A stretch of 64,000 bases of DNA. Source: a virus. Made by a program: the position numbers and the translations under genes. Position 1 is the first letter of the stretch, and every line of letters begins with the position of its first letter. The notes beneath the pieces are model-generated. The model searched no databases and was not told the origin of the DNA. It was given only the letters and a program-made list of their open reading frames with translations. This document shows, in pieces, positions 13,587 through 45,700 of the stretch. The stretch spans positions 32,001 through 96,000 of IMG/VR virus record IMGVR_UViG_3300018916_000001; one strand, written 5' to 3'.

Positions 13587-13628
13587 GTTTTTATACTATT
13601 ATATAGGTACTTCATATTATATATCAAA

Positions 13629-18800: not shown

Positions 18801-19107
18801 TAATCTCTATAGATCTGAAATACAGAATAAATATAGTAATAAATACAAATATAGTCAAAATTTATGGAGTGAAAAAGAAATAGCTAGTCTACAAAAGCAA
18901 TATGTGAAAGCTAGTGATATTGTTACAGCTAGAAATACTTATCAATCTTATCTAGAAGAAACAGAAGATATATTAGCTAAGTTAAGCAGCTTCGAGAAGA
19001 GTATAAGTGATTCGACTATTAAATTCTCTTCCTATGAAAATGATAATATAAAAGAAAAACTCTCTAAATTACCAAGTATAAGAAAAATAAAATTCTATGA
19101 GAAGTAG
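15859..19107 (+). CDS. Giant Mu gpF/SPP1 gp7-like head morphogenesis protein
   Basis: RIAETEISLAYNLGR, CNHC, PPFHVSCWC motifs; hydrophobic helix and long coiled-coil extension. Confidence 0.8.
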   Translation: MATVLKKKKSKSSLDINYVDKFVNSVENKLYNFNLMFLTPYKKELDNGDSSVLNKISKNFNLPTLIIKNALDELWNHHWILGQQDVLSSEKNKRSNYSISSNELITFAIDPNQKIVDSRVEKRILKEQSIRVAALQKELNRKNLNQSDKNTIKANLDLISNELQQFLGSLGSRNVTQDKKNKQFASVDVRVRDLQETIRTMELKLSESNAPNPNTNGIDILNSTEFGTIYQNKRTLLLAQNYSEDYKKNVIKKIRDYFSNNEGVRPNNREQKLFNALTTRQENENQEYYQKLLKDPDLKGEDRTALTAIEDFIDQIKDNKSLNDKQIQKFATGESGYGNDAKVNLATTRLKNQTAKSDLYKDLAQQLIDLIQPYKDNKKVARYKENIPKIRNAGDIRNLLKTIKEREVKNILIDGQYKEGAFDSKSGKYKPIESIENTASNIFGIRRIKRIAETEISLAYNLGRLKKLEELGYKKVRVTNEAENRTNRDRVLALQELQKVKESYRLNKAYRLPNSKSYMPILCNHCLGRKGDEFDIQTDKVYESNVNTPYNQVDKRYSLFPPFHVSCWCYFEGVEDSRKAGVINTKVPPIKDGLVLSGIGLLSVASAYIAFNVLKRNPVAKNLTQTVFDRATDVRNTFNDALKRPKVNLPLNLTPKQIEDSRKILDVTDEAFEQIESNTRNLLGVSNVSKKSGDAVLDAIDNSLVGRSYKTLNENAKSFNGVLDDIPDYVRNLKPVIDSRERYYTLRNIIYDKSVPIETRKSIYNQYLIARREYEKQISNHLNRTRNLKSTVNNIQSQLTLDANRQILGNIDNFPPNTNLEDALNSVRSRNALTLTDTQLKSIRNNLATERKGIQEKINVESKVIDNTLDGIDTKQKAIDLKDSYRNIRNLSDSYISRNKALDKVITNIDSIKKELNNTTKLGNTKRNLLNSRLNSSNPIDRQYLLDNQEKYIKDVIKQQQLIISELKKLPKNDSELDDFINLYRSEIQNKYSNKYKYSQNLWSEKEIASLQKQYVKASDIVTARNTYQSYLEETEDILAKLSSFEKSISDSTIKFSSYENDNIKEKLSKLPSIRKIKFYEK

Positions 19108-20179
19108 TCGATATATCACATTTTCAGGAAATCAAAAAGTAAAAAAAGATATTAAAGTTAAAGGTTATGTAAGAAAAGGTAAGTTTGTTAGGTCATTTAA
19201 TAGAGAACAAAATGTAAATCAAATTGCTCTTAAAGTAGCTGGTGTAAGTTTAGCTGTGTTAGGTGGTGCGTTAGGTATTGGTATTACTGGAGCTGCTGTT
19301 ACTAAATTTAGATATAACAAGAATCTAGTTGATTTCGGTAAAAAGATTGCTAATGGTACTGCTGATATTCCATCTATGAAAATTCCTGAAGGTGTTAAAA
19401 AGATAAAACCACCTTATAGAATTGATGCAGACAAAGATGACCTTACTTTTTTTATAGGAGGTATGGGTAGAGCAGAAGATGCTTTAGGAGAAAAGTTAAT
19501 GAAAACTGTTAGAGCTTCATTTAAAGCAAGAGGTAAAGATATAACTAAACGACATGAGTTAGTCCCTCTCTTTCACAATTATCAGGTTAAGAGAGATGTA
19601 AATCTAAAAGTTTTAGGAAAAGATTTAAGTGACACTCCTGTAGCAAAGATGGGTCAAGAGATATATGACGTATTTAATAAAGCTGCTATTAAAGGATATA
19701 ACGAAGACTCACTTATTATGGCGAATGAAATTTATAAATGGCACAAGCTCAATCCTACTAAACCTATCAACTTAATTACTGCTAGTGGAGGAGGTTTTCA
19801 AGGTAAAGATGTTCCTCACTTATTGAATGCTGCTGGAGTAGACCCAAAATTAATGAAAGTATTTTCTACTGCTACACCTGATTACGGTATTGTAGATGAG
19901 ATTGTTCCTACTTTAAAAGTCATGCACACTGATGATATGTATGCAAGAACTATTCCTAAGATTAAACAACTAAATTTACCATCTTTACATAGAGGAACTA
20001 CTTGGGTCGGCCCTGGAGATACACCAGAATATAGAGCAATGCTAAAGAAAGGAAATAAAATGGTTTCAGATTACGAGATGCCTGCTGCTGTTCACTTTGC
20101 TCCTGCATATTTCAATGGAGAAACTCTATCTTCTAAGAAAACTTTAAAGTTGCTTGAGAATTTTATGTTTAATGATTAA
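19097..20179 (+). CDS. Leader + basic motif + Gly-rich TM + alpha/beta-hydrolase-like domain (putative capsid cargo)
   Basis: ITF|S leader, VKGYVRKGKFVRSF, TM, FFIGGMG, INLITASGGG nucleophile elbow, HTDD, AVHF. Confidence 0.6.
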   Translation: MRSSRYITFSGNQKVKKDIKVKGYVRKGKFVRSFNREQNVNQIALKVAGVSLAVLGGALGIGITGAAVTKFRYNKNLVDFGKKIANGTADIPSMKIPEGVKKIKPPYRIDADKDDLTFFIGGMGRAEDALGEKLMKTVRASFKARGKDITKRHELVPLFHNYQVKRDVNLKVLGKDLSDTPVAKMGQEIYDVFNKAAIKGYNEDSLIMANEIYKWHKLNPTKPINLITASGGGFQGKDVPHLLNAAGVDPKLMKVFSTATPDYGIVDEIVPTLKVMHTDDMYARTIPKIKQLNLPSLHRGTTWVGPGDTPEYRAMLKKGNKMVSDYEMPAAVHFAPAYFNGETLSSKKTLKLLENFMFND

Positions 20180-23886: not shown

Positions 23887-25053
23887 ATGTCACACGTTGC
23901 TACATTTTTCAATGAACGGTTTATCTCCAAGCAAGTAATGGCTATGGTAGATGAAACTGAACAAAATTTAATTAAAAGAAGTAAGTTAATCGACCCGTAC
24001 TTCCCTACTCAAATGTTTGATAGTAGAGACTTTGTAGGTCTATTGACTAAACGGGTTGCTCCTGCTGCATCTATCGTTGCGTATGGCGCTGAAATTCCAT
24101 TGGTTAACTTTGGTGGAATTGAACGTATGGCAGCTACATTATTCAAGTTGGGTACTTCACGTCTCTATGATGAAGAAACTCAATGGAAAATGATTGAAGC
24201 TCAAAATATGGCAATTGCTAAAGGTATTAGAGTTCAACGAGTTTATAACCCTGATGGAACCGTAACTCCTGGGGCAGATGCAGACTTGGCACGAGCTTTA
24301 TTTGGAGTAGTTGAAGATTTACTTAAAGGTATTACTGATCGGATGGATCACATGAAGTGGCAGGTAGCTTCTACTGGCGCTATTGATATGAAAGATCCTA
24401 AGACTGGTGCATTAGTACAACTAGATTTTAAAAAGCCAGGTGTAAATTACAATCACTTCCCAGCTCCTTTGACTCAAACTGGTAATACTGTCACTCCTAC
24501 TCAAAACAAATGGACTGATCATGAAAATGCTCGTGGCCTTGAGAATCTTAGTGATGCGGTAGAAACTTATTATGATACTAACGGTTATGCCCCGGATAAG
24601 ATTGTAATGAGTCGTAAGTGTTGGAGAGATTTCTTACATCAGAAGAGTACAAGAGATGCTGCCCGTCAATTGACTACTACTGAATTAGGTTTAGTCTCTG
24701 CTGATATGGGTAAAAAACTATTAGAAGCTCGTGATATTCCTGAAGTAGTCACATTTGAAGAAAAATATCAAGAACAATTACCTGATGGTTCTATAGTAGA
24801 TGTTAACTTCTTAAATAACAATCGAATTGTGTTTCTGAAGAATAATATGGGTATTAGTGCTATCGGCCCAACTATTGAGTCTGTTAAGGAAGTTGTTGGT
24901 GGTGGAGATACTAAGATTGAACCTAAATCAGGTATTTATGTTAGTACCTACGAAGAAAACAAACATCCTGTACATGACGTATCAATGGCGACTGCTACAT
25001 TTGTACCTATTGTAATGAATCCTAAGCAACTATTCTCTTGGCAGGTACGATAA
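23887..25053 (+). CDS. Major capsid protein (lambda gpE-like HK97 fold)
   Basis: 388 aa; APAASIVAYGAEIP, WQVASTGAI, PDKIVMS, ATATFVPIVMNP. Confidence 0.85.
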   Translation: MSHVATFFNERFISKQVMAMVDETEQNLIKRSKLIDPYFPTQMFDSRDFVGLLTKRVAPAASIVAYGAEIPLVNFGGIERMAATLFKLGTSRLYDEETQWKMIEAQNMAIAKGIRVQRVYNPDGTVTPGADADLARALFGVVEDLLKGITDRMDHMKWQVASTGAIDMKDPKTGALVQLDFKKPGVNYNHFPAPLTQTGNTVTPTQNKWTDHENARGLENLSDAVETYYDTNGYAPDKIVMSRKCWRDFLHQKSTRDAARQLTTTELGLVSADMGKKLLEARDIPEVVTFEEKYQEQLPDGSIVDVNFLNNNRIVFLKNNMGISAIGPTIESVKEVVGGGDTKIEPKSGIYVSTYEENKHPVHDVSMATATFVPIVMNPKQLFSWQVR

Positions 25054-25579: not shown

Positions 25580-26005
25580 ATGCTCATTCAATCAAAAATC
25601 ACAAGTCTTCAAGTAGTAAGAGATTGTACTAAAGAAAAACCTCAGATATATTTGAGAAATTCTAAACATTCTATAAGAGATACTATTCCTGTTGTATTAG
25701 ATATAGCGTCTAGTGAACCTATCAAGTTAAATAATATAGGATTAGCATTTAAGTTATATCATCAATTGAGTGGAATATTACTTAAGCAATATGATACTAA
25801 TAGCTTTGTGTTTCCTATAGTAGAAATGAATTCTATTAGAGCTATTCTCTATATAAATGGGATAGATATAAAAACCTTCTATCAAAATAAGAGTTTAGAG
25901 TTTCCTAATAAACTTCAAGGTATTAGCTACTCACTAGATATATCAGTTAAAACTACTCAAAATATTTCAAATTATACAGACTCAGGAGAATTTTATGTCT
26001 ATTAA
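25580..26005 (+). CDS. Hypothetical virion-module protein (beta-sandwich-like)
   Basis: Location; C-terminal DSGEFYVY. Confidence 0.6.
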   Translation: MLIQSKITSLQVVRDCTKEKPQIYLRNSKHSIRDTIPVVLDIASSEPIKLNNIGLAFKLYHQLSGILLKQYDTNSFVFPIVEMNSIRAILYINGIDIKTFYQNKSLEFPNKLQGISYSLDISVKTTQNISNYTDSGEFYVY

Positions 26006-26405
26006 GTTTATAGGGTCTGTTAATACTAGCTACAAAAGAGGTAAAGATAAGACTAAACGTAAAAGTCGAGGTTTACTAACTGCTGCTGGTTTAGGTGTTA
26101 TTGGTACAGTAGCTGGAAGTAGTTTAGCTCAAAGCGGACTAATAGTAGATAAGCTTAAAAAAGTAGGTAGCAAATCCGGCTATAAGTTCAATATACTAGA
26201 TAAGACAATGGCTCATGGTTTTGGACAATATATAGTTAAAAATATGCACGATAACCCAGAAAAATCAAAAGTAATTACGAAACAACTAAAAGTTCTTAAT
26301 AAAGCTAAATTACGTGGAGGAATTAAAGGTGCTGCAATTGGTGCTGGTATAGGTTTAGGAAGTACATATCTAATAAATAAATTAAGAAATAAGGATAAAA
26401 ATTAA
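25995..26405 (+). CDS. Basic glycine-zipper protein (putative capsid cargo)
   Basis: MSIKFIGSVNTSY|KRGKDKTKRKSR; two GxxxG helices. Confidence 0.75.
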   Translation: MSIKFIGSVNTSYKRGKDKTKRKSRGLLTAAGLGVIGTVAGSSLAQSGLIVDKLKKVGSKSGYKFNILDKTMAHGFGQYIVKNMHDNPEKSKVITKQLKVLNKAKLRGGIKGAAIGAGIGLGSTYLINKLRNKDKN

Positions 26406-27300: not shown

Positions 27301-28065
27301 ATGACTAAGACTAAACTTAAGATTATTAATAGAACTCCATTAAAAAGTAGAGCTATACCATTTATTGAGTTACAACCACGTTATCTCTATTGGTTAGATA
27401 CTAATACTGAAATTGATGTAGAAATTATACGAGAGAAAGACGCTCATTATGAAGTTAAGCTATATACTAACTTTCCTGATTCACCTGTAGGTATTAGAAC
27501 TTGGTTTATCTATAAGGAACACGTAGAAGTAATAGAAGACAAAAAGAAATCTAGTAAGAATATACTTAAGACTGATTATTATTATCAACTAGACAATAAT
27601 TATCATCCTTATACATCTTGCTTTTTAACTTGTGTAGCAATGCTCTTATCTTTCTATAAGGTGAAGGTAACGCCAGATGAACTATATAATAAATGTCTAG
27701 ATTTAGGATACGACAGGTTTTCTCACCAAGATATTGTAGCTATCCTTAAAATCTATGGAGTTAATTATTATGCTACTACTTCTGGTACTTTTGAAGAGTT
27801 AAAAAAAGTATTACAAACTGCTCCAGTAATTATTGGTACTTATCTCACTGAAGCTAGTCATATTGTATTAGCAGTTGGCTATGATGACTCTGCTTATGAT
27901 GGGCGAGGTGCAATTATAGCTAACGATCCTTATGGAGAATTTACTCATAACGGTTATATACATACTCCTACAGCAGGGAAAGGTACTTTATACTCTTATT
28001 CTCTAATGGCTCAGGTAGCTGCACCAGAAGGTAATGGAAATTATTGGTTACATTTACCGGAATAA
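27301..28065 (+). CDS. C39-like cysteine peptidase with cyanobacterial-type N-terminal SH3-like domain; probable endolysin
   Basis: YYQLDN..SCFLTCVAM (Cys), SHIVLAVGYD (His), NDPYG (Asp); N-terminal LKIINRTPLK..HYEV..WFIYKEHVEV. Confidence 0.75.
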   Translation: MTKTKLKIINRTPLKSRAIPFIELQPRYLYWLDTNTEIDVEIIREKDAHYEVKLYTNFPDSPVGIRTWFIYKEHVEVIEDKKKSSKNILKTDYYYQLDNNYHPYTSCFLTCVAMLLSFYKVKVTPDELYNKCLDLGYDRFSHQDIVAILKIYGVNYYATTSGTFEELKKVLQTAPVIIGTYLTEASHIVLAVGYDDSAYDGRGAIIANDPYGEFTHNGYIHTPTAGKGTLYSYSLMAQVAAPEGNGNYWLHLPE

Positions 28066-28069
28066 AACA

Positions 28070-28357
28070 ATGAAACACAAAATGAAGCGTTCTCTATATT
28101 TCACTAAAACATTTTTATTTTCTCTTTTACTTTATTTATCTGTTATCTATACTCCATTAATTAACTTCGCTTATGAACATAAATTGAGTAGAGGAGATTT
28201 AGAAGCTATAGTTATAGGTACTTTTAGTTTCTTAGGAGTTAGTAATGGTAGGTTGAGAGTTAACGAAGATATTAGAAAAAGTGCTGAAACGGGAGAACCT
28301 GTAGGATTACTTACAACTAAAGTAGTTCCTAGTAAGAGAAAAGAAGAAGAGGTATAA
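28070..28357 (+). CDS. Holin-like two-TM membrane protein
   Basis: Two hydrophobic helices and charged tail, directly after the peptidase; ATG at 28070 preferred. Confidence 0.55.
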   Translation: MKHKMKRSLYFTKTFLFSLLLYLSVIYTPLINFAYEHKLSRGDLEAIVIGTFSFLGVSNGRLRVNEDIRKSAETGEPVGLLTTKVVPSKRKEEEV

Positions 28358-28361
28358 GTTA

Positions 28362-29906
28362 ATGGTTATATTTAGTCTATTACTTGAAAAAGTTGAAGAT
28401 GATTATTACTATCGATATATTAGCGACAACATTACTTATTACATACCTTCATACAAAACTGATAGACTGAATAAACCTATTAGCGAATTTGAGTCTTTTG
28501 AAGATTATACAAGCATCTCTGAATTTTTAAATAGAGTATATAACGAAAATGAGTATAGCGAAGATTATGTAGTAAAAGAAGCTAAAGATACAAAAGAAAT
28601 ATCTATAACAATAATGGGGTATAAATATAAAAACTTCATTGTTCTTATAGGAAGTCAAAAATCAGATATTTTACTAGAAGAAACTTTATTTAAAGAAGAC
28701 TATATATTTCTAGTTAGATGGGTAGGTAATAAAGAAGATTTAATAGATGATATATCAGATAATGTAGTTAATCTTTTAGGATATAGCAAACAAGAAATAC
28801 TATCTAAACCTTATATAGATTTTTTACATCCTGATGATATTGACTTATTTAATCAAGAGTTAACTGAACATATAAAAGAAAATACTGCTTCTTTCTATCA
28901 AAGATATAGATTATTAGCTAAATCTGGAAAAGCTATCACTATTCTCGATCATTCATGTCAGATCTTTAAAGGAAATACTAAGACTATCATTGGTTATCTA
29001 AGAGATATCACTGTAGAAACTCAAATCTCTACTCAATTGAAAGAACTTATTAACTTAGATGAAGAAGATTTTAATAGTAGTCTTCTAATTAAGATTGAAT
29101 GGGATTCTGAATATCGAATAGTTCGTTGGAATACTGAAGCTCAAGATTTAATTGGTTGGGGTCACGAAATTCTTGGTAAAAGTATTAGAGAACTCAACTT
29201 ATTTTCTGATGCAGATTCTATTAAGATGCAAGGTCAATTTAAAAGATTATTTGCAAGAGAAGTAGATAACGTAATTAGTAGTTTTAGAATTCAAAAGAAA
29301 GAAGGAGGATTTATAGATACTAAATGGTCTAATCGTTTAATTACTAGAGAAGGTAAATTGAGAGTTGTATCTTCCGTCATAGATAAAAGTCAAGAAACTC
29401 TATTAACTACTCGCTTAGATGAGATGGAAGGTCGTTCTGACTTACTTCTAAAAACTCTAGAAAATACTCATTTATCTAATGATGTCTTTACTAAATTAAT
29501 GCACAATCCTCTCACTGGAAATCCTGAAGGACTTATTAAAGCTGAGATTATCATTAGAAAATTAGAAGAAGAGATTACTAGATTGAATAATACGATTTTC
29601 TACAATAACGATAATAATTTGATGAGTGACATTGCTTTCTTAAAGAATGAGGAACGTGTACTAAAAGATAAAATTAATAAAGTAGAAGAAAGTAATAAAA
29701 AGTTATCTGAACAGTTAGATGATTTATTAAACGTAAATATATTAACTCTATTTAAGAATTTAGATTTTAAAAAAGTTGTAGCAATAATTATATCGGGTTA
29801 TTTAATATTCGGTCAGTTTGTACCTGCTCTATATCCAAGATTAGTTAAACCTTTATTCCAAGAATATAATCGAGAAATGAAAGAGATTGAAGGTGATAAA
29901 AAATAA
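28362..29906 (+). CDS. PAS-PAS-coiled-coil-TM protein without an output domain
   Basis: ISDNVVNLLGYS..FLHPDD..YRLLAKSG..RDIT; IEWDSEYRIVRWN..IGW..LGK..KWSN; C-terminal VVAIIISGYLIFGQFVPALY. Confidence 0.85.
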   Translation: MVIFSLLLEKVEDDYYYRYISDNITYYIPSYKTDRLNKPISEFESFEDYTSISEFLNRVYNENEYSEDYVVKEAKDTKEISITIMGYKYKNFIVLIGSQKSDILLEETLFKEDYIFLVRWVGNKEDLIDDISDNVVNLLGYSKQEILSKPYIDFLHPDDIDLFNQELTEHIKENTASFYQRYRLLAKSGKAITILDHSCQIFKGNTKTIIGYLRDITVETQISTQLKELINLDEEDFNSSLLIKIEWDSEYRIVRWNTEAQDLIGWGHEILGKSIRELNLFSDADSIKMQGQFKRLFAREVDNVISSFRIQKKEGGFIDTKWSNRLITREGKLRVVSSVIDKSQETLLTTRLDEMEGRSDLLLKTLENTHLSNDVFTKLMHNPLTGNPEGLIKAEIIIRKLEEEITRLNNTIFYNNDNNLMSDIAFLKNEERVLKDKINKVEESNKKLSEQLDDLLNVNILTLFKNLDFKKVVAIIISGYLIFGQFVPALYPRLVKPLFQEYNREMKEIEGDKK

Positions 29907-30121
29907 TGCAACTTAAATTTTTAGGTAATATAGAATTTAGTAAAACTAATGCTGAAGGTAGAAAACGTTATAAAAGAAAATCTAAAGTCAATAATCCAAA
30001 TAATGAACTTCTAATACGTAAAGATAGAAGAGATGGTTTCAAAACTAAAATTAAAACTGTAGAAGAAGGTAGAAAATGGATAAATACTTTCCTAAATTTA
30101 AAGAGATATTTTAATAATTAA
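29906..30121 (+). CDS. Small basic protein with the shared leader
   Basis: MQLKFLGNIEF|SK. Confidence 0.7.
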   Translation: MQLKFLGNIEFSKTNAEGRKRYKRKSKVNNPNNELLIRKDRRDGFKTKIKTVEEGRKWINTFLNLKRYFNN

Positions 30122-30708
30122 TGTATAAATATATAACAATTGAGAAAATTCAGAGAAGTTTAGGTAGGAGAGCTAATGTATTTAGTAGTGATTTAATTCC
30201 TAGTGATAATGTATCTGTCATATCTAGCAATATAGATGTTGAATTAATACATGATTTAATAGTTAGAAATGAAACTCTTATAGATACGTATTTTGGAATG
30301 ATTTATGTTCTTCCTATAGATATTAGAGATATTCCACTTATCGAACCTATATTAGAAGGTTTTGTTATTAATGATTTAATGATGAGAGTTTATGACCAAG
30401 GAATGATTGCTTCTCTAGGTGGAGATGGAGGATTTGGTTCTACTATATATCAAAAAGCTAAAGAATTACTTAAAGGATATTTTATTGGTACGGGCATTTA
30501 TATACCAGGAATATCAGCACCAGAAGATAATGGATATGGAAAAGAAGCTTATCCTTTACTTCTACCTTATACACCTCAATTAACTAATAGAAGAGATAAT
30601 ATTACTAGGAACTATACAGTAATAGGAACTTATCAAAATAATAGAAGAAATATGGAATTTGATTTTCAAGATAATAGAAGATATTTAGGAGTTGAAAGAC
30701 CATTTTAA
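30121..30708 (+). CDS. Head-to-tail adaptor (Mu gp36/DUF1320-like)
   Basis: MYKYITIE..LIDTYFGMIYVLPI..YQKAKELL pattern and position. Confidence 0.6.
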   Translation: MYKYITIEKIQRSLGRRANVFSSDLIPSDNVSVISSNIDVELIHDLIVRNETLIDTYFGMIYVLPIDIRDIPLIEPILEGFVINDLMMRVYDQGMIASLGGDGGFGSTIYQKAKELLKGYFIGTGIYIPGISAPEDNGYGKEAYPLLLPYTPQLTNRRDNITRNYTVIGTYQNNRRNMEFDFQDNRRYLGVERPF

Positions 30709-30733
30709 TTTACTCATTTAAATAATATAAACT

Positions 30734-31042
30734 ATGAAATTTTTAGGTCAAATAGAATTTAGTAAAAAAGTAAAGAAAAGTCAAATGTGGAGTCCTGAAG
30801 TAGCTAAGACTAATCTAGCTATTACTACAGGTTTAGGTGGAGGTATTGGGTATCTAGAAGGAATGAAATCAAATTCTAGAAAAGGAATGCTAACTAATAA
30901 TCCCGTTAGAGCTATTAGTGGTAAAGGTTGGAAACGTAAACTTGTAGGAGCAACATTAGGTGCAGGATTATCTGCTGGAGTGGGTTATGCAATTTATAAA
31001 AACAACCCGTATAGTCCTATAGGTAAAAAGAAAAATAAGTAA
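30734..31042 (+). CDS. Basic glycine-zipper protein (putative capsid cargo)
   Basis: MKFLGQIEF|SK; GLGGGIGYLEG; VGATLGAGLSAGVGY. Confidence 0.75.
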   Translation: MKFLGQIEFSKKVKKSQMWSPEVAKTNLAITTGLGGGIGYLEGMKSNSRKGMLTNNPVRAISGKGWKRKLVGATLGAGLSAGVGYAIYKNNPYSPIGKKKNK

Positions 31043-31377
31043 TGATACGATTTCTAGGTCAATACACGGAATTTTCAAACTCTTTTACTAAGAATATGAT
31101 TAGAGAAAATGACAGATCTCTAACAAATGTTAATGGTAAGAAAGTAAATCTAAGTCACTTAGGTCTAATGAGTGCGTTAGGTGCTTATGGTGGATATGAG
31201 TCTGGCAAACTAGGTAATATGTTAAAAACCAAAAAGAATATAGCTGGTAAAGGTCTTAAAGCTAAGGTAATAGGTACTGCTCTAGGAACTGGATTAACTG
31301 GTGGGCTTAGCTATTATTTACAAACTAGAGATAGAGATGGACGTTCAGATAAAGGTAAAAAGAGGATTAATAAATGA
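31042..31377 (+). CDS. Basic glycine-zipper protein (putative capsid cargo)
   Basis: MIRFLGQYTEF|SN; paralog of 30734 (IAGKGLKAKVIGTALG vs ISGKGWKRKLVGATLG). Confidence 0.75.
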   Translation: MIRFLGQYTEFSNSFTKNMIRENDRSLTNVNGKKVNLSHLGLMSALGAYGGYESGKLGNMLKTKKNIAGKGLKAKVIGTALGTGLTGGLSYYLQTRDRDGRSDKGKKRINK

Positions 31378-31865
31378 GTAGTATATATTTTGTTGGCTCT
31401 ACTAATACTGAATATGGTAGAGGAAAAGATAAAACTAAACGTAAAAGCCGTATTGGAAAGATTACTGGTGCTGCGGGTGGCCTAGCTACAGGTTTATTAG
31501 CTGGAAAAACCTTAACCAGTGGAGCAGTAGGAGCTTTAGCTGGTGCAGGAGCAGGAATGTTAGTAGATAAAGACATAGACAGAGAGAAGAAAAGATTTGA
31601 AAAAACAAAACGACCTCTTAGTTTGAATGGGAAAGTTAATAATGACTTTATTAGTGGAACAAAAGCTTTAGGTACTACTGGAGTGGGTTTAGGTGGATTA
31701 GGTGGTGGACTTATAGGTAAAGGTCTAAAAAATAAAGCTAAGTTAGCATTGATGGGGGCCGCTCTTGGAGGTGTTGGAGGAGCTGGAATTGGTGGATTAG
31801 GAGGAATAGCGAGTGGAGCAATCAGAGCTAAACTACAACCCAATAGTAAGAAAAAGAAAAAATAA
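31374..31865 (+). CDS. Basic glycine-zipper protein (putative capsid cargo)
   Basis: MSSIYFVGSTNTEY|GRGKDKTKRKSR; four Gly-zipper segments. Confidence 0.75.
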   Translation: MSSIYFVGSTNTEYGRGKDKTKRKSRIGKITGAAGGLATGLLAGKTLTSGAVGALAGAGAGMLVDKDIDREKKRFEKTKRPLSLNGKVNNDFISGTKALGTTGVGLGGLGGGLIGKGLKNKAKLALMGAALGGVGGAGIGGLGGIASGAIRAKLQPNSKKKKK

Positions 31866-32239
31866 TGAATATAGGTCGTGGTAAAGACAAGAAGAAAAGA
31901 AAAAGTAGATTACTACAACTAGGTACTAAAGCTTTAGCTGTTATAACTGCGGGAAATCCTATAGACCGAGAAACTGTTAGATATAATAAGCAAGGCCCTA
32001 GAACTAGATTAGGTAAGATTGGTCATGACGCTGTAATTGGTGCAAATACTTTAGGTACTGGTAGCGCGTTTAGCGGATTAGTAGAAGGATTTACTAGAGG
32101 TAAGAATATCAAAAGTAAGTTATATCTAGGACTTTCTAAAGGAGCTAAAGAAGGTATTAGAGGAACGCTTTCTGGTGCAGGTATTGGAAGTACAATAGGA
32201 ATTACTAGAGGATTATTTCAACCTAATAAAAAGAAATGA
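31865..32239 (+). CDS. Basic glycine-zipper protein
   Basis: MNIGRGKDKKKRKSR; GTLSGAGIGSTIG. Confidence 0.7.
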   Translation: MNIGRGKDKKKRKSRLLQLGTKALAVITAGNPIDRETVRYNKQGPRTRLGKIGHDAVIGANTLGTGSAFSGLVEGFTRGKNIKSKLYLGLSKGAKEGIRGTLSGAGIGSTIGITRGLFQPNKKK

Positions 32240-32571
32240 GTAAACCTAAATGTAAATATAGAACAAGATTTAATACTTGGAAAAGAAGTAGAGAAGCTTC
32301 TGAAGTTAGTAGAAGTCTTATAAGAAAAGCACTTTATCTATGTCCTATTTGTAGAAATCCATTATCTCTAGGAGAAGGTCACTTATTCCACATAATACCT
32401 ATTAAACTACTATCTCAAAATAATTGTATGAGTTTAGTATCTAGCGAATATAATCTACTATATTCTTGTAAAAAGTGCAATTTAAAGCAGAGAAGTGAGA
32501 TATATACTGAATGTCTAGAAGATAATTTATTGAATATATGGAAAAAGATAACTAATGAAGTTTCTAGCTGA
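32236..32571 (+). CDS. HNH endonuclease-like protein
   Basis: CPIC..HLFHIIP..NLLYSCKKCN. Confidence 0.75.
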   Translation: MSKPKCKYRTRFNTWKRSREASEVSRSLIRKALYLCPICRNPLSLGEGHLFHIIPIKLLSQNNCMSLVSSEYNLLYSCKKCNLKQRSEIYTECLEDNLLNIWKKITNEVSS

Positions 32572-33556
32572 ATTTAAAAAAACTAAAGAAGAAAAGAAGA
32601 GAAATCTCACTAAAGGTATTGTTTATTTGGGTAGTGCGGGTTATACAGGTCAACAAACTATTAGATCAGGTATTCCTCGTTTATTAGGAGTACGATTAGA
32701 ATCTCATAGTACAAGTAATAAAAATGCAAAAGAAATACTAAAAAATGGTGGAATATTAGATCCAAATAAAAGTGGTTCAGGAGCTATTAGAGCATTGGAA
32801 GCTAATGAAGGGTCTTTAGCGGGATTTAAACCTTCAGATGCAAAAGGTAAAATTTATATTACTGGTATTCATCAAAATGCAAACTCTAGAACATTAAATG
32901 GAGTAAAAGTTGATCCTAAAAATGAAGATGTTTTAACTCAAGTTCTAAATAGAAAAGATCAGAGAATGGGTTATCGTGGACAATCTAGTATTAATTGGAA
33001 TGAAGTAAATAAAGATAGAGATAAAATAGCTCAACTAATAAAAGATTTTGATAACTCTACTGATTTAGATGAAAAGCTTGTCAAGAGCAAAGAAATAGGA
33101 AAATTAAAACAAGAAACATCTCTAAGAACTACTCAAGCTAGAGGAAAAGCTGCTATTAAAGCTCTTTTACCTACTACTGGTCGAAGTCTTTATATTGGTG
33201 GTAGTGACGAATATTTTAATAAGAACTTTAAACCTGATTTTGATGATGTTCGTGCTATGTACTCTGAAAATAAAATTAAAGTACATGGGAACAGAGCAGC
33301 AGCTACATTAGACGCACTTAAAAGAGAAGGTAATGGAAGTAGATTAAAAGGTGTTGCTAAATTAATTCAAGCTAATCCTAAAAGAGCATTGGCAGGACTA
33401 GCTATATTAGGTATTGGAGGAGGTCTTACAGCTAACTCAGCTAAAGTTGCTTATGAAAATCTAGCTCCAAGTGACGGTAAAGTAAAAAGTCATACTAGAA
33501 AAAATAAATCTGGTAAATGGTCAAATGTCAAATCTTTTGTAAGAGATAAAAAATGA
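32555..33556 (+). CDS. Leader + ADP-ribosyltransferase-like domain + Gly-rich TM + basic motif (putative capsid cargo)
   Basis: MKFLAEF|K; HSTSNKNAKEILKNGGILDP...GKIYIT; ALAGLAILGIGGGL; VKSHTRKNKSGKWSNVKSFVR. Confidence 0.55.
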   Translation: MKFLAEFKKTKEEKKRNLTKGIVYLGSAGYTGQQTIRSGIPRLLGVRLESHSTSNKNAKEILKNGGILDPNKSGSGAIRALEANEGSLAGFKPSDAKGKIYITGIHQNANSRTLNGVKVDPKNEDVLTQVLNRKDQRMGYRGQSSINWNEVNKDRDKIAQLIKDFDNSTDLDEKLVKSKEIGKLKQETSLRTTQARGKAAIKALLPTTGRSLYIGGSDEYFNKNFKPDFDDVRAMYSENKIKVHGNRAAATLDALKREGNGSRLKGVAKLIQANPKRALAGLAILGIGGGLTANSAKVAYENLAPSDGKVKSHTRKNKSGKWSNVKSFVRDKK

Positions 33557-34062
33557 ATAATGCACTTAAAGTAGACAAAATATTTAATTGGCAATCAAAC
33601 TATCAAAACTCTGTAAGAAATAATAATTGTCACATACAAATCTATTCTCCTCTATATGATTTTGATGTAACTGCAAAACGTATAAAAGAAAATCGTAGAT
33701 ATCTAAATCCTAAAGAATATGAATTAGTTATAGCTAGTGATTTTGATGATCATAGTAATGGATCTATTACTACTGAGATTTATTCTCTAGCATCTAAAGT
33801 TATATTAGAAAATACTTTATTAGTTCCACATACTATATGGATTAATAAATATGAACAACATCAAGAAGGTCTATTCAATTTCGACTATAAGATTTCTTTA
33901 GTAGAAATAAACGTTAACTATATAGGAAATGAAAGTTTTACTTATTATCCTATATGGCAAGATGAATTAGATTATTTAATCACTGGAGATCCTGTATATT
34001 TTAGAGAAGTCTGTTCTAGTGGATGGAGTCAGTTATATGAAAGATGGAAGAGTAGAATTTAG
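33553..34062 (+). CDS. Hypothetical protein
   Basis: 169-aa ORF with ATGA overlap. Confidence 0.7.
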   Translation: MNNALKVDKIFNWQSNYQNSVRNNNCHIQIYSPLYDFDVTAKRIKENRRYLNPKEYELVIASDFDDHSNGSITTEIYSLASKVILENTLLVPHTIWINKYEQHQEGLFNFDYKISLVEINVNYIGNESFTYYPIWQDELDYLITGDPVYFREVCSSGWSQLYERWKSRI

Positions 34063-34150: not shown

Positions 34151-34978
34151 ATGGCAGATAATAAAAGTCCCGCTCAAGCTACAAATTTACTGAACTTCTT
34201 AAAAGGTTTAGTCGTTACATCTCCGATTAATAATAACGTTTTCATTGGTTTATCTACTACTCTTCCAACTGCGGAAGGTGGTAATTTTACTGAACCTGCT
34301 GGATCTACGGGTTATGCAAAAGTTCAATATGCAACTGGTGTATCAAACTTCTCAGAACCTAATAAGCGCTCATGTTTCAATCAACAAGAAGTGAAGTTTA
34401 ATGTTGCTCTTACCCAATATCCTACTGTAGTTGCTGTAGGTATATTTGATGAGACTAGCGATACCGTTCCTCTTTATTTCGGTTCTATTGATTTAGGTCG
34501 AAGTATTGAAACTGGTGATAGAGTATATTTCCCACCTCAAGGAATCATCATTCATGAAGTTCAACCGACGTTTACTAAATCTGATTATTTAGCAAATGCA
34601 CAATTGAAACTCTTACGTAATGAGACATTTGAAACTCCGTCTGAGATTTATTTGGCTCTTGGTACAATGACTCCTACGATGACTGGAGATATTGGTGAAT
34701 TGACTAATACTAACTCCCCTGGCTATGTCCGAATTCCTATTCCTTGTAATGCAGCGAATTGGCAAGTTACTGGACGAACTGCGACTAATCTTATGGAATT
34801 AGTATTTCCAATGGCAACTGCACCTTGGGAGAATATTAAATCCTTCGCTCTACATAGAAGTGCTACTGGTAATACAGATATGCTCTATTGTGGAAGTTTT
34901 GGAGAGAACAACACTAAAGTTATTTACCTCAAAGATAAATTACGGATTCCAGTAGGCGCAATTACAGTTTCAGAATAA
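34151..34978 (+). CDS. Virion structural protein with two tandem repeated domains (minor tail/fibre-type)
   Basis: FIGLST..EPAGSTGYA..F..A..VGIFD repeated as YLALGT..ELT..PGYVR..F..A..FALH. Confidence 0.7.
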   Translation: MADNKSPAQATNLLNFLKGLVVTSPINNNVFIGLSTTLPTAEGGNFTEPAGSTGYAKVQYATGVSNFSEPNKRSCFNQQEVKFNVALTQYPTVVAVGIFDETSDTVPLYFGSIDLGRSIETGDRVYFPPQGIIIHEVQPTFTKSDYLANAQLKLLRNETFETPSEIYLALGTMTPTMTGDIGELTNTNSPGYVRIPIPCNAANWQVTGRTATNLMELVFPMATAPWENIKSFALHRSATGNTDMLYCGSFGENNTKVIYLKDKLRIPVGAITVSE

Positions 34979-35892: not shown

Positions 35893-36477
35893 ATGGTAAC
35901 TCTTTCAGCAGATTTTAGTGGATTAGAAGGATTGAGTAAGAAATTTGAGAATGCTTTAAAGCGTAAGAAAGATTTAACTCAGTTAGAAGCTGGTATTAAA
36001 GAAGTATTAGTAGAAGATGTAAAGTTACGTTTTGCTACTGCTCCACTAACTAATAAAGGTGGAATGGCTCATGGTAACGTATTTTGGTCTGCAATGACTC
36101 CTAATTGGTTAGCTACTCATCCCGATAGAATGGGTAAACCACTACTTAAAGATACTGGTAAGTTACTTAACTCTCTAATTGTTGGTAATGATGACTCAGT
36201 ATTTAGTATGACAAGAGAAGGTTTTCAATTTGGCACTAAAGTTGCTTATGCCAAAGATCATCAACCAGATTCTATCGGTACAACTATTCCACTAAATCTA
36301 CTTCAAGATGAAAGAATTACTGATATGTTTAGGAGTCAAGGTAAACTTGCTCCTAGACCATTCCTCTTTATTCACGAAACTCTTAATAATGAGATCGTAG
36401 ACGTAATATCTGAGTTTATTCTTACTGGAGAAACTAGAATCAGAACCAAAGATAATATAAAGGAATTAAAAGAATGA
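35893..36477 (+). CDS. Mu gpG-like virion morphogenesis / tail completion protein
   Basis: PLLKDTGKLLNSL, FGTKVAYAKDHQ, APRPFL. Confidence 0.8.
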   Translation: MVTLSADFSGLEGLSKKFENALKRKKDLTQLEAGIKEVLVEDVKLRFATAPLTNKGGMAHGNVFWSAMTPNWLATHPDRMGKPLLKDTGKLLNSLIVGNDDSVFSMTREGFQFGTKVAYAKDHQPDSIGTTIPLNLLQDERITDMFRSQGKLAPRPFLFIHETLNNEIVDVISEFILTGETRIRTKDNIKELKE

Positions 36478-39703: not shown

Positions 39704-42700
39704 ATGGATACTGCTAGCAATATTAAATTTAATGTTGAGGGAGATGATAAGTTCTCTCAATTTCTAGAGAAAACTCAAAAATCATTTAAAGAACTTAATG
39801 AGAAATCACTTAGGCTATTTAATACTGGTCTTAGAGAAGGTTCTAGAGGTTTAAAAGATATAACAAAAGAAATTAGAACTAAGTCTAGTGTAGTAGAGAA
39901 GTTAATAGCGGATTATGGTAAAGCTACTAACTCTACTAATACTTGGACAGCTTCTCTTGGTAAATTAGCTAAAACTGCTACATTGCTAGGTGGAGCTATG
40001 ACAGCTTTAAATATTGCTAGCATTGGTGGTGGTATCGCAAGTATTGTAGGTACTGGTATTAATGGTGTAATAGACTCACTTACTAAAGTTAATACTGGTA
40101 TAGATGTTATGGCTGCTAGTGGATTTGACGGGACTCCACTAATGAATTCATTTCAAGAGATAACTGCTGTATTAACCGGAAATCAAGCTGCTATTGATGC
40201 TTTCACTTCTAGATCAACTGCTGCATTTAACTCGTTTGAGCAGAAATTAAATGAAGTTAACATTGTATTTGGCTTATCAAAAGAAAGATTAGCTGAATAT
40301 GGCGATGCTCTACAAAATGGTTTAGAAAAGAATTTAAAGAATAGTGTCTCTTCTCTTACTGCTTTAAATGCTGCGTATCAAGCTGCTTCTGCTGGATTTA
40401 CAGAATTTCAACAAAACCAAGATGTAGTTAATCTAGCAATCAAAGCGAATAAAGCTGCTCCGGGAAGTGACTTATTCCAGATTGGTGGAGCTATTGGTAA
40501 AGGTGCAGGTATCCTAGAAACTAAGGACATTGCAGAATTAGAAGAAGTTACTGCTAAATGGTTAGCTACGGAACAACAAGGTCTAACTACTGTAGGAGAA
40601 ATGACTGAGTATATTAGCGATATGTACTCATCTCTTAAAAACGCAGGTATTGGTACTAAAAATCTAGTTAATGAAACTCAAGGTTTAGTAGTAGCTTTTA
40701 CTAAGTTAGGTGGTAAAGTTACTGATATCTCTACTGAAATGCAAGCGTTCTCTAGAAATACTATTGGTAAAACTCCTGAAGCAACGAAAGCTTTAGAAGG
40801 ATTGGTAGACGCACAAGGAAAAGCTATTACTCTTAATCAAGAATATTTTGGTAAGAAAGGTGTAGTTCAAGGTATTGTAGATTTTGCTGAAGCCGTAGGA
40901 TATAACACTGAGAAGATTAAGGAAGTATATAACGAGACTAATGCTTTCAACTTTGTAATGAAGGTATTAGCTCAAAATGGTAATCTTGCTAAAAAATCTA
41001 TTGAAGATATTAGTAAAGTTACGTCTGAAAATTTAACTGAAGCTTTTGATTCTGCTACTTCTTCATCTCAAGCAAAAATGGAGCAAATTACTAATGCTTA
41101 TGATGAAATAATGATCTCTTTCGGTAAAGTATTCCAAGAAAGAAGTAGAGAAGGTGTTAAATCTATTGAGTGGTATAAAGAAGCTTTAGTAACTTTTAAA
41201 GAGCCATTAGTAGAAATAGCAGGAAGAATGGTAACTTTTTTTGATAATGTAGGAAAATTTACTGGAGTTCTTAGTTCAGTTGCTAAAATGCTCACTGGTA
41301 TAGCAGGAACTATTATTAGCTATAGAGCTTTTGACTTAATTTTTAAAGGACTAACTGATGGATTTAAAGATGTAAAAAAAGAAGGTTCTGTAATTAAAGA
41401 GCTTTATACATCTAATCAAGGTTTATTTGCTATAGGAAAGCAGTTATTAGGATTGGATCAACAGAAACTATTAAGTCAAAATAGAATCAATGAAGCAATT
41501 AAAAAGTCTAGTGAATTAGAACAAGGACTAACTAACTCTATAGGAAAAACTAATAGTGAAAGATTAACTTCTATTGCTACAGTTAAAAATGAGATAGACG
41601 CAATAGTTTCTAGAGATGAGTCTATAATTAAAGGTCAGCAAAAAGTAACTAAAGCTGAAGAACTACTAAATAAGAAAGTAGATAGTAGAAATACAGTACA
41701 ATCCGAAGTAAACTCTACTCAAAAAGGTTTAGCTAATCTAAAAACTCTTAAAGCTGATATTGACAATACTTTTAAAAATAATGTAGAGAATATTGAGCGT
41801 TCCAAAAAACTTAGTGAAATCGCTGCTCAAGAAGCTTTAATTAAACAAGGAAATATTGGAAAACAAGAAAGACAACAATTAAAAGAGCTTAACGCAGAAA
41901 AACTAAGACTTCAAAATACTTATAACACAACTACATTAGACCAATTAGCTTCATTAGAAAAACAAAAAGATATTCTAAGAAATAAAGCTAAGAAATCTGA
42001 TAGAGATTATGCTGCCTTAGACAATATATATAAGAGAGAAGATCAGTTATTAGATAGAGAAAGAACAAAAGATCGTACTCCTCTAACTAAAGAACAAAGA
42101 ACTGAGCTTAACAATACTCGTAAAGATATTGCTACTAAGATACAGCAAGAAGAATTAATTCTCTTAACTCAAAGACAAAAGTTACAAGAAGCTAATAATG
42201 TAGTAGATAAAGAAACTCAAAAACTAAATCAAGTTAGAGCTGACCAACAAGAAAAACTTAATCGAGTTACTAAAGCTACTACTGAATTAGCAGTTCTACA
42301 ACAAGATTTAAATACTAAAAAAACTAATCTAGATAAAATTGATTTAGCTGTTACAGGACAACGTGATAAGCTATACTCAATTCAAAATAATCTAAGAAAA
42401 GAACAAGCTACTTTAGATAAAATTCGTAATAAGGATAGCGCAGAATATCAACAGCAATTAAAAAAAGTTGTATCTTTACAAGAACAAGAAGCTACTCAAC
42501 AAACCGTATTTCAAAAAGCTAGAACTACCCAACTTACTGCACAACAAGCTGTTAACAAAGCAGAAATAGAAAGTAAAACTAAACTTAGACAATTAACTAG
42601 AGAACAAGGTTTAGCGGAAGGCTCGCTTATTGAATTAAGAACTCGTTCAGGTTCAGTAGCTCTTAAAAATACAGCTTTTAATAGAGATTTAGTGAGTTCT

Positions 42701-45700
42701 TATAATGCTTTTGGTACTGCAATAGAAAACGCTAAGAAACCAGTACAAACCTTTAATAATGCTCAAACAAGTCTAAGAAATGGTTTAGTAGATTTGAGAA
42801 GTAATTTAGGTCAAGTTGGAGTTACTGCTGGTAGAAACTTTACTACTATGGCTGCGTCTGCTAAAGCTAGTCTTGCTGCTATTGGAACTTCCGCTGTTAT
42901 AGCTGGAGAAACTATTAAAGCTGCGTTTATATCTACAGGAATAGGTTTACTTATATCGGCTGTTGTAGGGTTAGGAGTCAAATTATTTCAAGTAGGACAA
43001 GAATCAGCTAAGTTAGATCGTACTTATAAAGATTTTAATAAGACTTTAGAAGAATCTGCTACTAAATTTGATAGAGCTAATATATCTTTTGACCAAGGAA
43101 CTCAAGGACTTAACAAATTTAATGATAGAGTAGAAGCTTCTAAAAAATTGTTTGGTGATATTGAAACTACTGCTTTTGATGAGATTGGTGAAGGTATTAA
43201 AAATGCAACGGTTAATATAGTTGACTTTATAACTACTGTTACTGGATTAAAACTGCTAGACCCAATATTTAAAAAAGTAGGAGAAGGCTTTTCAGCGGTT
43301 TGGAATAGTTTTTCAGATGCAGAGTTTATTAAACGTTCTGCTAAAATGACTCAAATATCTGAGTTTATCCAGACTTATGAGTTAGCTTTACGTGGACAAA
43401 ATAAAGAATTAGAGAAAGGCAATCTATTAACTGAGACTTCTAATCAGAAGATAAAAAATAGAATGATTCTTACTGGTGAAGATTTAGAGCGGGAGAAAGC
43501 TGCTAATAGCACTAGAATTGAGTCATTCCAGTCTATGACTGATATTCAGAAGAAAGAATTAGAAGAACTTAAAAGTAAAGGAGATAAGTTAACTGATAGA
43601 GATAAAGCTCAAATTAGCATTCTAGAAGCTGAAATCTCAAGAAGAGAGAAAGTAATAGAAGTTAGTAAGAAACAATTTGATGAGCAACTTAAATATTATG
43701 AAGCTCGTAATCTTCTACTAGATAGAGAGAACAAATTTAGTAATGAGCAAGTTTCTTTAGAAGAACTTAAAGGATTACAAGACCAAGTAAACAATTCTCA
43801 GACTACTCTAAACAAGAATATAAGTGAAGGATTAGATATATATTCTTCTTCTATTAAAGATTCTTCTGTTAAATCTAGACAATTTTTAACTGATTTGAAA
43901 GATGGAAGTTTAAGTGTAAAAGCTTCTATTAAAAGTCTTGGTGGAGAAATCTATAAAGTAGGAGAAGATGGAAAAGCTGTTAGTAAATTGCCAGATACAG
44001 TTCTAAAATCTATTCAAGATGCTATTAAAGGTAATGAAGTAGATGGTAAGAAATATTCTTTAGAGCAAGTTCTAAATCTTAAAGAAACTAGAGATGCTTT
44101 AACTACTGCTGGAGTAGAAATACCTAAAGATCTCAAAGTCTTAGCAGATAAGATGAAGAAAGGCTATGAAGCTTCAGAAGGCGAACTCCAGTTAATCAAT
44201 CTAAAAGAGCTAGAAAAAGATTTAGCTAGTTTCTCTACTTTATCTGATAAATACCAAGAGAAAAGAAGACAGTTTTTATCTACTACTAAAGATGATATTG
44301 GAGCTACCACATTTTCTACTTCACTTAAGAAATCTTTAAGATTAGCTGAAACAGATTTACAAAACTTTAATAACGCTTTAGATGCGTCTTCTAAAGGTGC
44401 AAATAAGTTTGTGACTGGAGCTACTCAAAAGTTCACTACACAAGCCTTAGAAGGAACGTTAGACCTTACTGAAGGGTTAAAAGAGTTAGGTAAAGTAGAA
44501 AGTGAAATTGAACCTAAACAATTAGAAAAACTTAAAAACTCAATTACTGGTAAAAATAAAGATGAGATTTTAACAGCTCTTAAAGAAATTGGAATAGTTA
44601 CAGAACAAACTCTAACTGCCGATGCAATTGATTTTAATAAATTTGAGGCGGGAATAGGAGCTTTTGTAGAATCACTAAACGCGGTAGCAGAATCAGGAGA
44701 ACAAACCAGTGAAGAAATAGCTAAGAAATTTGAGTCTTTCTATGACCAAATGAAAGGCAAGGTAACTCCTGCTGCTTATAAAGACCTAACTGAAACACTT
44801 ATTGGTTATGAGAAAGCTGCTAGTGAACAAAGAATAAATAATATAACTCTTGAAACTAATGCTTTAGAACAGCAGAAGAAATATGGTTTAGTGTTAGAAG
44901 CTAATTATATCAAAGAGATTAACGCTCTTAACATTCAAACTACTGAAGAAAATATAAATAACAAGCAAATAGAACTTAAAAGATTACTTTCACTATATAA
45001 AGAATCTGCTCCTCAAGTAATAAAAGCTAAAGCTGAATTGGAATCACTAGAATTAGACCTTAAAGCTAAGAAATCTAATAGTCCAATAGAAATTGCCCAA
45101 GCGGAAAGTAAAGCTAGATTTGACATTCTTAAAAAAGATTTAGAGTTAGGTAAAGTAACTAGAAGACAATATATAGAAGAAGAACTTAAAGACTCTCAAC
45201 TTCTATATCAAACTCAATTAAGTGAAAAACAAAAAACTTTATTGGAGTTAATGAAAGATGAGGTTAAAAACGCTAAAGCTATAAAAGCTCTTAGAAAATC
45301 AATGGAGTCTGATGAAAAAGATTTCAATCTAAATGTCTTAGAGATTAATAGAAGAAGAATAGAAGAACAATTTAAAATTCAAACTAATGCTTTAAGTAGA
45401 CGAGAACTAGAAGCTAGAGAAAACGCTATTAATGGTACTACTAAAGATGAATTAGAGTCAGTTAGAAAATTAGAAACTGATAAGATTAATCTCAATATCA
45501 AAACTTTAGAGTCTAGATTAGCAGTAGAAAAGCAAGGAAGTGAAAAGTTCCTAGAAATAGAGAAGCAATTATTAGAAGCTCAGTTATCTCTTAGAGAAAC
45601 TCAAGTTAAACAATCTAAAAATAGAACTAATGAGGAAATCGAGAGAAAGAGAAATGAGTTATCTACTATTGCAGCTCTAGAAGAAAGAAATAATATTCGT

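Follow-up and report, generated by a model that had tools for sequence, protein, structure and literature searches.

What kind of protein is encoded at positions 32555-33556 of the window, and where in the infection cycle does it act? The window is a 64,000-nucleotide stretch of viral DNA with a G+C content of about 30% (bases 32001-96000 of IMG/VR record IMGVR_UViG_3300018916_000001, a 151,199 bp virus with direct terminal repeats). The open reading frame (ORF) in question, present as a single copy in this phage, lies within a long block of co-oriented virion genes. A preliminary description, made from the letters alone, had placed an ADP-ribosyltransferase (ART)-like domain here, between a leader and a membrane anchor. 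The ORF and both sequence strings quoted for it, H51-S-T-S-N-K-N-A-K-E-I-L-K-N-G-G-I-L-D-P70 and G98-K-I-Y-I-T103, are exactly as described. The protein is probably a head-borne enzyme that the phage delivers to its host. It belongs to an undescribed, extremely divergent family with a predicted ART fold, which has a leader, helix and tail architecture of its own.

Predicted fold of the core

Judged from predicted structures, the core of the protein very probably has an ART-like fold. The full-length AlphaFold2 model has a predicted local distance difference test score (pLDDT) of 84.6 and a predicted template modelling score (pTM) of 0.74; residues 1-11 fall below a pLDDT of 50 and the block 11-20 averages 71. 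Fold searches with this model yielded only helical hairpins and coiled coils, because they were dominated by a variable helical-hairpin insert within the core. This insert is missing from short homologues such as P0058 and P0053, and many homologues do without it. The core was modelled on residues 22-208 of the insert-free P0058, which is 42% identical, with a 104-sequence alignment (pLDDT 91.8, pTM 0.86).

The structural neighbours of the core model are almost only ART-superfamily proteins, in agreement with the ART-like domain of the preliminary description. In a search of 48,161 chains the first 20 rows belong to this one superfamily, and the split β-sheet of the ART core (strand 1 - helix - strand 2 ... 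strand 5/6) is recognisable by structure comparison. The nearest structures are Tpt1/KptA, Arr and DarT, and the RES-type toxins ParT and VPA0770 are also among the matches. Foldseek, which had been named as a way of checking the assignment, gives nothing at E ≤ 1e-3 with the core model, but its weak rows include Arr, TreTu, CC0527, KptA/Tpt1 and cholera toxin A1. In the ESM Atlas the core model finds DarT, DUF3990, RNA 2'-phosphotransferase, Arr-ms and PARP clusters at template modelling (TM) scores of 0.38-0.45, and the weak rows from BFVD include a phage 'RNA 2'-phosphotransferase', a mycobacteriophage ART and ParB-type large proteins.

No sequence profile ties the family to any ART family. 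Neither the protein itself (E ≤ 0.1) nor 41 family members (E ≤ 1) match an ART family in Pfam, and PF18760 is absent among the listed Pfam matches of these 41 members at the same threshold. PHROGs, NCBIfam and PADLOC have no family for the protein, the sequences of the PDB contain no credible match by phmmer or by family profile, and a language-model atlas is uninformative for it. PF01885 (Tpt1/KptA) has zero matches in the phage genome, with positive control searches; PF18760 likewise finds nothing there, in a search whose control also gave no match. The hhalign comparison of the family with E. coli KptA, taken alone or as a 27-sequence alignment, is not significant. In the single-sequence comparison the HGT region of KptA was paired with another segment (K-V-Y-G-N-R), and this pairing is given no weight.

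Family and conservation

A word-indexed search found 61 homologues with 34-89% identity, and an exhaustive search found 104, which are representatives of 50%-identity clusters. They come from metagenomes, from phage contigs of which many are 80-150 kb long, and none has an informative name, a few being labelled 'hypothetical protein'. In IMG/VR the family occupies 26 loci. A tblastn search of 50,697 deposited phage records gave no homologue, and a scan of 185,579 species genomes gave no relative and hence no prophage-derived clue to the host. The family is widespread in a clade of large uncultured phages, with contigs that reach about 150 kb and without a cultured representative. One IMG/VR contig (L008, 81,218 bp) carries two diverged ART-like paralogues, P0006 (366 residues) and P0017 (396 residues).

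Conservation was counted in the alignment of the 104 members, in the numbering of the window protein. H51 is present in all 103 members counted and G104 in all 104. Nearly as constant are G45 and R277 (103 each), E49, Y140 and G266 (102), I61, F225 and D228 (101), T53, G74 and T103 (100, with Ser in the other 4 at position 103), A58, P70 and G281 (99), R47 (98) and R42 (97). They are followed by G39 and D69 (95), G216 (94), Y213 and D218 (90, with 9 Glu at 218), D230 (86), D231 (85) and R247 (83, with 20 Lys).

The H-x-T...G-x-Y signature from which the domain was originally recognised stands in part: H51 and T53 are conserved, but the Tyr is not. Position 101 is always aromatic, with 51 His, 36 Tyr and 17 Phe among the 104 members. 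Among the 84 open frames of the window, one contains the generic pattern H.T.{30,70}G.Y, as do 33 of 2000 shuffled versions of the protein, so that the motif on its own is uncommon, not decisive. It is more than a chance occurrence because it is conserved across the 104 members.

Putative active site

The residue correspondences given here are offsets from the ends of alignment ranges and are approximate, not residue-level superpositions. In the match to Clostridium thermocellum Tpt1 (6e3a), model residues 18-162 lie on chain residues 96-182, and H51 and T53 fall on His101 and Thr103 of the HGT motif. By end-anchored offsets, H51 is also within one residue of H21 of diphtheria toxin, H460 of cholix and H440 of ExoA. 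In Tpt1 and diphtheria toxin the His and Thr of the HGT motif form hydrogen bonds with the adenosine 2'-OH of NAD+ (PMC6333775).

The second ART strand has the family pattern [SA]-K-[GN]-[YKF]-V-[HYF]-I-T-G, which is reminiscent of S-R-H-Y-V-H-L-S in Tpt1; hhalign pairs the two segments with the KptA alignment at a probability of only 0.35%. The third catalytic residue, which could not be assigned by eye, now has an approximate candidate position. Counted back from the C-terminal ends of the alignment ranges, E148 of diphtheria toxin, E581 of cholix, E553 of ExoA, E988 of PARP1 and E1138 of tankyrase-2 map to model residues 146-148. These correspond to D228-D231 of the window protein, in a P-D-x-D-D loop directly ahead of a strand, and the third catalytic residue probably lies in this loop.

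A plausible arrangement of the active site is H51, an aromatic residue (His, Tyr or Phe) at 101 and D228. ART classes include the H-H-h and H-Y-[EDQ] patterns (PMC9503650), and from its residues the family appears to sit between them. The HYD/HYE clade to which the domain had been assigned is not supported as stated, since the nearest structures are Tpt1/KptA and Arr and the second position is His in half of the family. Taking fold and conservation together, we lean towards an active NAD+-using enzyme. A 2H phosphoesterase, suggested by two H-x-T motifs (H-S-T and, in half of the family, H-I-T), was considered and dropped: the second His is Tyr or Phe in half of the members, and no 2H structure is found among the fold matches.

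Leader, helices and basic tail

The leader, which had been proposed from the single sequence, is borne out by its position in the family and by its co-variation with the leaders of neighbouring proteins. Most full-length members start with M-x-[FY]-[IL]...x-F, followed by Lys, Ser or Ala and a Lys-rich stretch, about 40 residues before R-x-E-x-H-x-T, and short members start straight at the Lys-rich stretch. In the fused proteins P0043, P0061, P0062, P0085, P0086, P0088 and P0047 an L-I-E-F-K or L-V-E-F-K-like motif is found at the same distance, where it forms the junction with an upstream Gly-rich module.

In the phage of the window and four related ones (L003, L004, L005 and L006) the leader co-varies with those of the co-encoded Gly-rich basic proteins. 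The leader type is M-K-F-L in the window, M-R-x-I-I-F in the syntenic L005, M-Y-L-L in L003 and M-Y-Y-L in L004; in L006 the homologue starts with M-F-L-I and its neighbours with M-Y-Y-L and M-L-L-S. In the window the leader type is shared by the ORFs at 29906, 30734, 31042 and 31374 (M-K-F-L-G-Q-I-E-F, M-I-R-F-L-G-Q-Y-T-E-F and others), while the ORF at 31865 begins directly at a G-R-G-K-D-K-K-K-R-K motif. All five have Lys-rich tails, and all except the 71-residue product of ORF 29906 have Gly-rich helices. An unrelated 195-residue ORF (30121-30708) interrupts this run. Among the small basic proteins of the window (25995-26405 and 29906-32239) and of L003-L006, the leader is often followed by G-R-G-K-D-K-K-K-R-K-S-R.

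From these patterns, the leaders of the small basic proteins look like a lineage-specific targeting or processing code, and the leader of the ART-like protein behaves in the way that one would predict for a signal recognised by a shared partner that evolves with it. No S77 (gp21-like) or S78 (HK97-like) prohead protease was detected, in a search in which the S77 control gave no match either; the only protease found was a ClpP-family protein, a possible but doubtful maturation protease. Directly downstream of the homologue in L006 there is another ClpP-like gene. The C39-like peptidase of the virion block was considered as the leader protease and is unsupported, as the leaders have no Gly-Gly site and PHROGs describes the protein as endolysin-like.

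Between the leader and the core, a Lys/Glu-rich linker is followed by a helix, the first half of which is Gly-rich and the second half of which carries the conserved G-Q-Q-x-x-R-S-G-x-P-R-x-L-G and is part of the core. This helix is insufficiently hydrophobic for a transmembrane segment, with a family median of 0.57 for the maximum 19-residue Kyte-Doolittle value (KD19). The membrane anchor of the preliminary description is a Gly/Ala-rich helix after the core, with conserved N274, R277 and G281. Its KD19 of 1.38 falls short of the usual hydrophobicity threshold, against a median of 1.44 in the family, in which 36 of 103 members have 1.6 or more. It is a borderline helix, not a clear transmembrane segment, and its hydropathy would suit packing between helices as well as entry into a membrane after ejection. 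The C-terminal tail has 10 Lys and Arg against 2 Asp and Glu in 30 residues, and the whole protein has 64 against 34, a net charge of about +30.

Gene neighbourhood

The features of the protein and of the surrounding genes are collected in Table 1. Around the homologue in L005 the gene order is conserved: capsid, HhH, C39-like, PAS, Gly-rich proteins, the ART-like protein and the Gp80-like protein. In L003 and L006, too, the homologue lies inside a virion block.

Table 1. Features of the ART-like protein and neighbouring genes, in window positions
Feature	Positions	Strand	Basis or remark
ART-like protein, ORF	32555-33556	+	ATG start, 333 residues
N-terminal leader, residues 1-7 (M-K-F-L-A-E-F), conserved Phe at end	32555-32575	+	family comparison
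Lys/Glu-rich linker, residues 8-18	32576-32608	+	sequence; disordered in model
N-terminal helix, residues 18-44	32606-32686	+	helix 18-43 in model
ART-like core domain, residues 45-262	32687-33340	+	core model of homologue, structural neighbours
Strand 1 motif R47-L-E49-S-H51-S-T53, putative NAD adenosine-ribose contact	32693-32713	+	conservation, offsets
Second ART core strand (third strand element in model), K97-G-K-I-Y101-I-T103-G104	32843-32866	+	putative nicotinamide-stacking aromatic
Variable helical-hairpin insert, residues 145-207	32987-33175	+	helices 148-203 in full-length model
Strand G209-R-S-L-Y213-I-G-G216-S-D218	33179-33208	+	strand 209-216 in model
Loop P227-D228-F-D230-D231, candidate third (acidic) catalytic position	33233-33247	+	conservation, offsets
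Gly/Ala-rich hydrophobic helix, residues 275-303 ('anchor')	33377-33463	+	helix 275-303 in model
Basic C-terminal tail, residues 304-333, and stop codon	33464-33556	+	composition
ClpP-family protease gene	9179-9688	-	PF00574, E 1.8e-14; about 4 kb upstream of terminase
Large terminase	13554-15218		virion block
α/β-hydrolase-like protein ('payload 1')	19097-20179	+	same block
1082-residue protein			virion block, between large terminase and major capsid protein
Major capsid protein	23887-25053		virion block
C39-like peptidase/endolysin-like protein (endolysin-like by PHROGs)	27301-28065		virion block
PAS-domain protein, 514 residues, C-terminal hydrophobic segment	28362-29906		virion block
Run of small basic proteins, mostly Gly-rich	29906-32239	+	virion block
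HNH endonuclease-like gene	32236-32571	+	weak Pfam and PHROG HNH matches
Gp80-like head/fibre protein	34151-34978		virion block, downstream of ART-like protein
Tail-completion-like protein	35893-36477		virion block
3220-residue ORF	39704-49366	+	virion block, past tail genes

The HNH-like gene overlaps the start of the ART-like gene by 17 nucleotides. A copy with 35% identity precedes the homologue in L003, and in the syntenic L005 a homologue of the HNH-like gene lies two genes downstream. Because its position relative to the ART-like gene differs between related phages, the HNH-like gene is not part of the same system; it behaves like a mobile insertion inside the cargo gene block. The 169-residue gene directly downstream (33553-34062) was considered as an immunity or chaperone partner and set aside, since it is non-adjacent in L005 and absent beside the homologue in L003 and L004.

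Two further observations concern the block itself. The trio of C39-like peptidase, small hydrophobic protein and PAS protein (27301-29906, plus strand) keeps its order in L005 (4925-7537). The positional equivalent of the 3220-residue ORF in L003, which has at least 2794 residues, matches PF10145 (PhageMin_Tail), as would fit a very long tape-measure protein.

Fusions and other putative delivered proteins

The ART-like domain is also found inside large proteins. In P0093 (1674 residues) it is accompanied by two Lipase_3-like hydrolase domains, P0098 (836 residues) ends in a DnaJ domain, and P0139 (1179 residues), from a phage contig of 85 kb where it is encoded near a terminase, has a KTSC domain. 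The α/β-hydrolase-like protein of the window matches each of the two hydrolase-like domains of P0093 (E 1e-6 and 5e-5). Since two separate 'payloads' of the window are fused in P0093, this protein supports a single delivered set. The α/β-hydrolase-like protein itself has a leader-like start, M-R-S-S-R-Y-I-T-F, and a Gly-rich helix. Between the modules of P0098 and P0093 a short Cys motif is repeated (G-D-K-K-C-G...G-I-P-D-N..C or D-K-G-K-P-C-G..Y-I-A..E-C-R-I-G), which is possibly a small zinc-binding linker.

The Macro domain is an ADP-ribose-binding and hydrolase fold. A Macro-domain protein (PF01661, E 4.6e-10, above the cut-off) is encoded in the phage outside the window, at 144277-144645 on the minus strand (L007). 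As an obligatory partner of the ART-like protein it was rejected: the gene is present in only 3 of 9 related IMG/VR records and in none of the 3 that are at least 90% complete.

Proposed function and alternatives

In the proposed mechanism the protein would be synthesised late, and its leader, acting like the capsid-targeting sequence (CTS) of T4, would take it into the prohead and be removed next to the conserved Phe. The basic tail and the Gly-rich helix would hold the protein with the packaged DNA, and it would be ejected at infection. Once ejected, the protein may also associate with the host membrane by way of the same helix and tail. Inside the host, the core would bind NAD+ through H51, T53 and the aromatic residue at 101, and an acidic residue in the P-D228-x-D-D loop would serve in the transfer of ADP-ribose. 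Packaging in the virion with processing of the leader is, on present evidence, a moderately favoured reading; the entire chain, from leader-directed packaging and processing through ejection to NAD+-dependent transfer in the host, is evenly balanced between holding and failing.

The target may be a protein or a nucleic acid. Because the nearest structures are Tpt1/KptA, Arr and DarT, the protein is basic and several Arg are conserved, a phosphate-bearing or nucleic-acid target seems about as likely as a protein target, and the choice is testable with the small soluble domain. We attach little probability to a more specific version, in which a virion-borne nucleic-acid ART, co-packaged with DNA through its basic tail, would act on the phosphate ends of nucleic acids as Tpt1/KptA does. 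It is just conceivable that such an enzyme might cap the 5'-phosphate termini of the phage's terminally redundant genome with ADP-ribose at entry, near the membrane; host RNA or DNA ends would be an alternative and similarly improbable substrate.

An ART fold need not imply transferase activity, and the domain could have a structural or binding role within an internal head or ejection protein, like inactive PARP-like domains, with its conserved residues engaging a ligand or partner instead of taking part in catalysis. This would accord with a second position that is not fixed, with the lack of a catalytic Glu and an acidic position that is mapped approximately only, with flanks that are shared with small proteins without an enzymatic domain, and with the weak structural similarity to ARTs. 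However, H51, T53, G104 and D228 are nearly universal in 104 diverged members, which fits an active site over a scaffold, and His, Tyr or Phe at the second position and Asp at the third occur in active ART clades (PMC9503650, PMC5512222), so that an inactive module seems rather unlikely. That a chance resemblance to ARTs hides an unrelated α/β fold with some other activity is extremely improbable, given that an unbiased search of the chains returned a single superfamily in its first 20 rows and that several independent alignments place the invariant His and Thr on the HGT motif. It is distinctly unlikely that NAD+ is used with no macromolecule being ADP-ribosylated, by a Tpt1-like phosphotransferase or a RES-like NAD+ hydrolase or phosphorylase; early delivery of such an enzyme for RNA repair, or for interference with NAD-derived defence signalling, is just as doubtful. 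The closest structures are indeed the NAD lobes of Tpt1/KptA, the second strand, S/A-K-x-x-V-H-I-T-G, resembles that of Tpt1, RES-type toxins are among the matches, and RNA, small molecules and soluble ADP-ribose derivatives are the substrates of the H-H-h clade (PMC9503650). Yet the Tpt1 RNA lobe and its Arg-His-Arg-Arg tetrad are missing and the match covers the NAD lobe only (chain residues ~92-182; PMC6333775), PF01885 does not match, and close to the place of the catalytic acid, which in the H-H-h clade is taken by a hydrophobic residue, there is a nearly invariant Asp.

The remaining alternative concerns the place of action and not the chemistry. A late, unpackaged, membrane-associated enzyme could work in the producing cell, where lysis timing and superinfection exclusion are examples of conceivable roles. 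The block does contain the C39-like, endolysin-like gene and a PAS protein whose C-terminal segment is hydrophobic, and Gly-rich hydrophobic helices could enter the producer's membrane. The gene, however, lies between capsid and tail genes in several phages, the leader motif recurs at the junctions of fused multi-module proteins, as fits processing sites, and some large multidomain proteins that contain the domain are of a type for which delivery by virions has been predicted. An enzyme confined to the producing cell is highly unlikely on these grounds, and we consider it no more probable that the shared N-terminus is a translation or localisation signal instead of a capsid-targeting propeptide. 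Delivery from the head remains the preferred reading. Should a targeting or processing role of the leader be confirmed, one could predict the full complement of delivered proteins in such phages, and foreign proteins might be tagged with the leader to load them into the capsids of these phages.

Comparison with known systems

Tpt1/KptA (PF01885; 6e3a, 9ld4) resembles the present protein, in predicted structure, in its NAD+ lobe. Its N-terminal winged-helix RNA lobe contributes Arg-His-Arg of the tetrad, whereas the N-terminus here consists of the leader and a helix. The conserved Asp cluster stands where Tpt1 has a hydrophobic residue, and the leader, the Gly-rich helix and the basic tail have no counterpart in Tpt1. 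Arr, the rifampin ADP-ribosyltransferase (PF12120; 2hw2, 9iaf), is a structural neighbour with no sequence-profile relationship and, unlike the present protein, a small cytoplasmic antibiotic-modifying enzyme without flanking modules.

In the ARTs of phage polyvalent proteins the active site is formed by His in strand 1, Tyr in strand 2 and Asp in strand 5 (PMC5512222). This H/Y/D arrangement of ART-PolyVal or Tox-ART-HYD2 (PF18760) is compatible with the putative H/[HYF]/D of the present family, and both are found in large multidomain phage proteins and in virion-gene neighbourhoods. The present domain differs in having no PF18760 among the listed matches and in being mostly stand-alone, with a leader and flanking helices of its own. 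T4 Alt is a known head-packaged ART, and such proteins have been predicted on a wide scale from fused domains. The present family is invisible to every sequence profile tried and is recognised by predicted fold only, so that profile-based surveys of phage NAD and ADP-ribose systems are expected to miss it.

The CTS of T4 is a short N-terminal peptide common to otherwise unrelated internal proteins, with diverse payloads behind it, and is removed by the prohead protease (PMC3012670, PMC9026906). Likewise, one leader type is common here to the ART-like protein and several small basic, mostly Gly-rich proteins, even though the T4 sequence ends in L/I-x-E and is cut by gp21, whereas the leader of the present family ends in a conserved Phe or Tyr. 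Alt itself embodies the principle proposed here: a late ART that enters the prohead, is trimmed by the protease and is injected with the DNA (PMC5512222, PMC9026906). Packaging and processing, which we infer for the present protein, are proven for Alt. The preliminary description was right to put Alt (R-S-E) in a different clade. The Alt/VIP2 clade has Arg in strand 1, S-T-S in strand 2 and E-x-E in strand 5, in contrast to an invariant strand-1 His and no conserved E-x-E here, and no Pfam match and no sequence or closest-structure relationship between the two was found. What is known from Alt is the strategy of a head-delivered effector; what is new is the family and its leader, helix and tail architecture.

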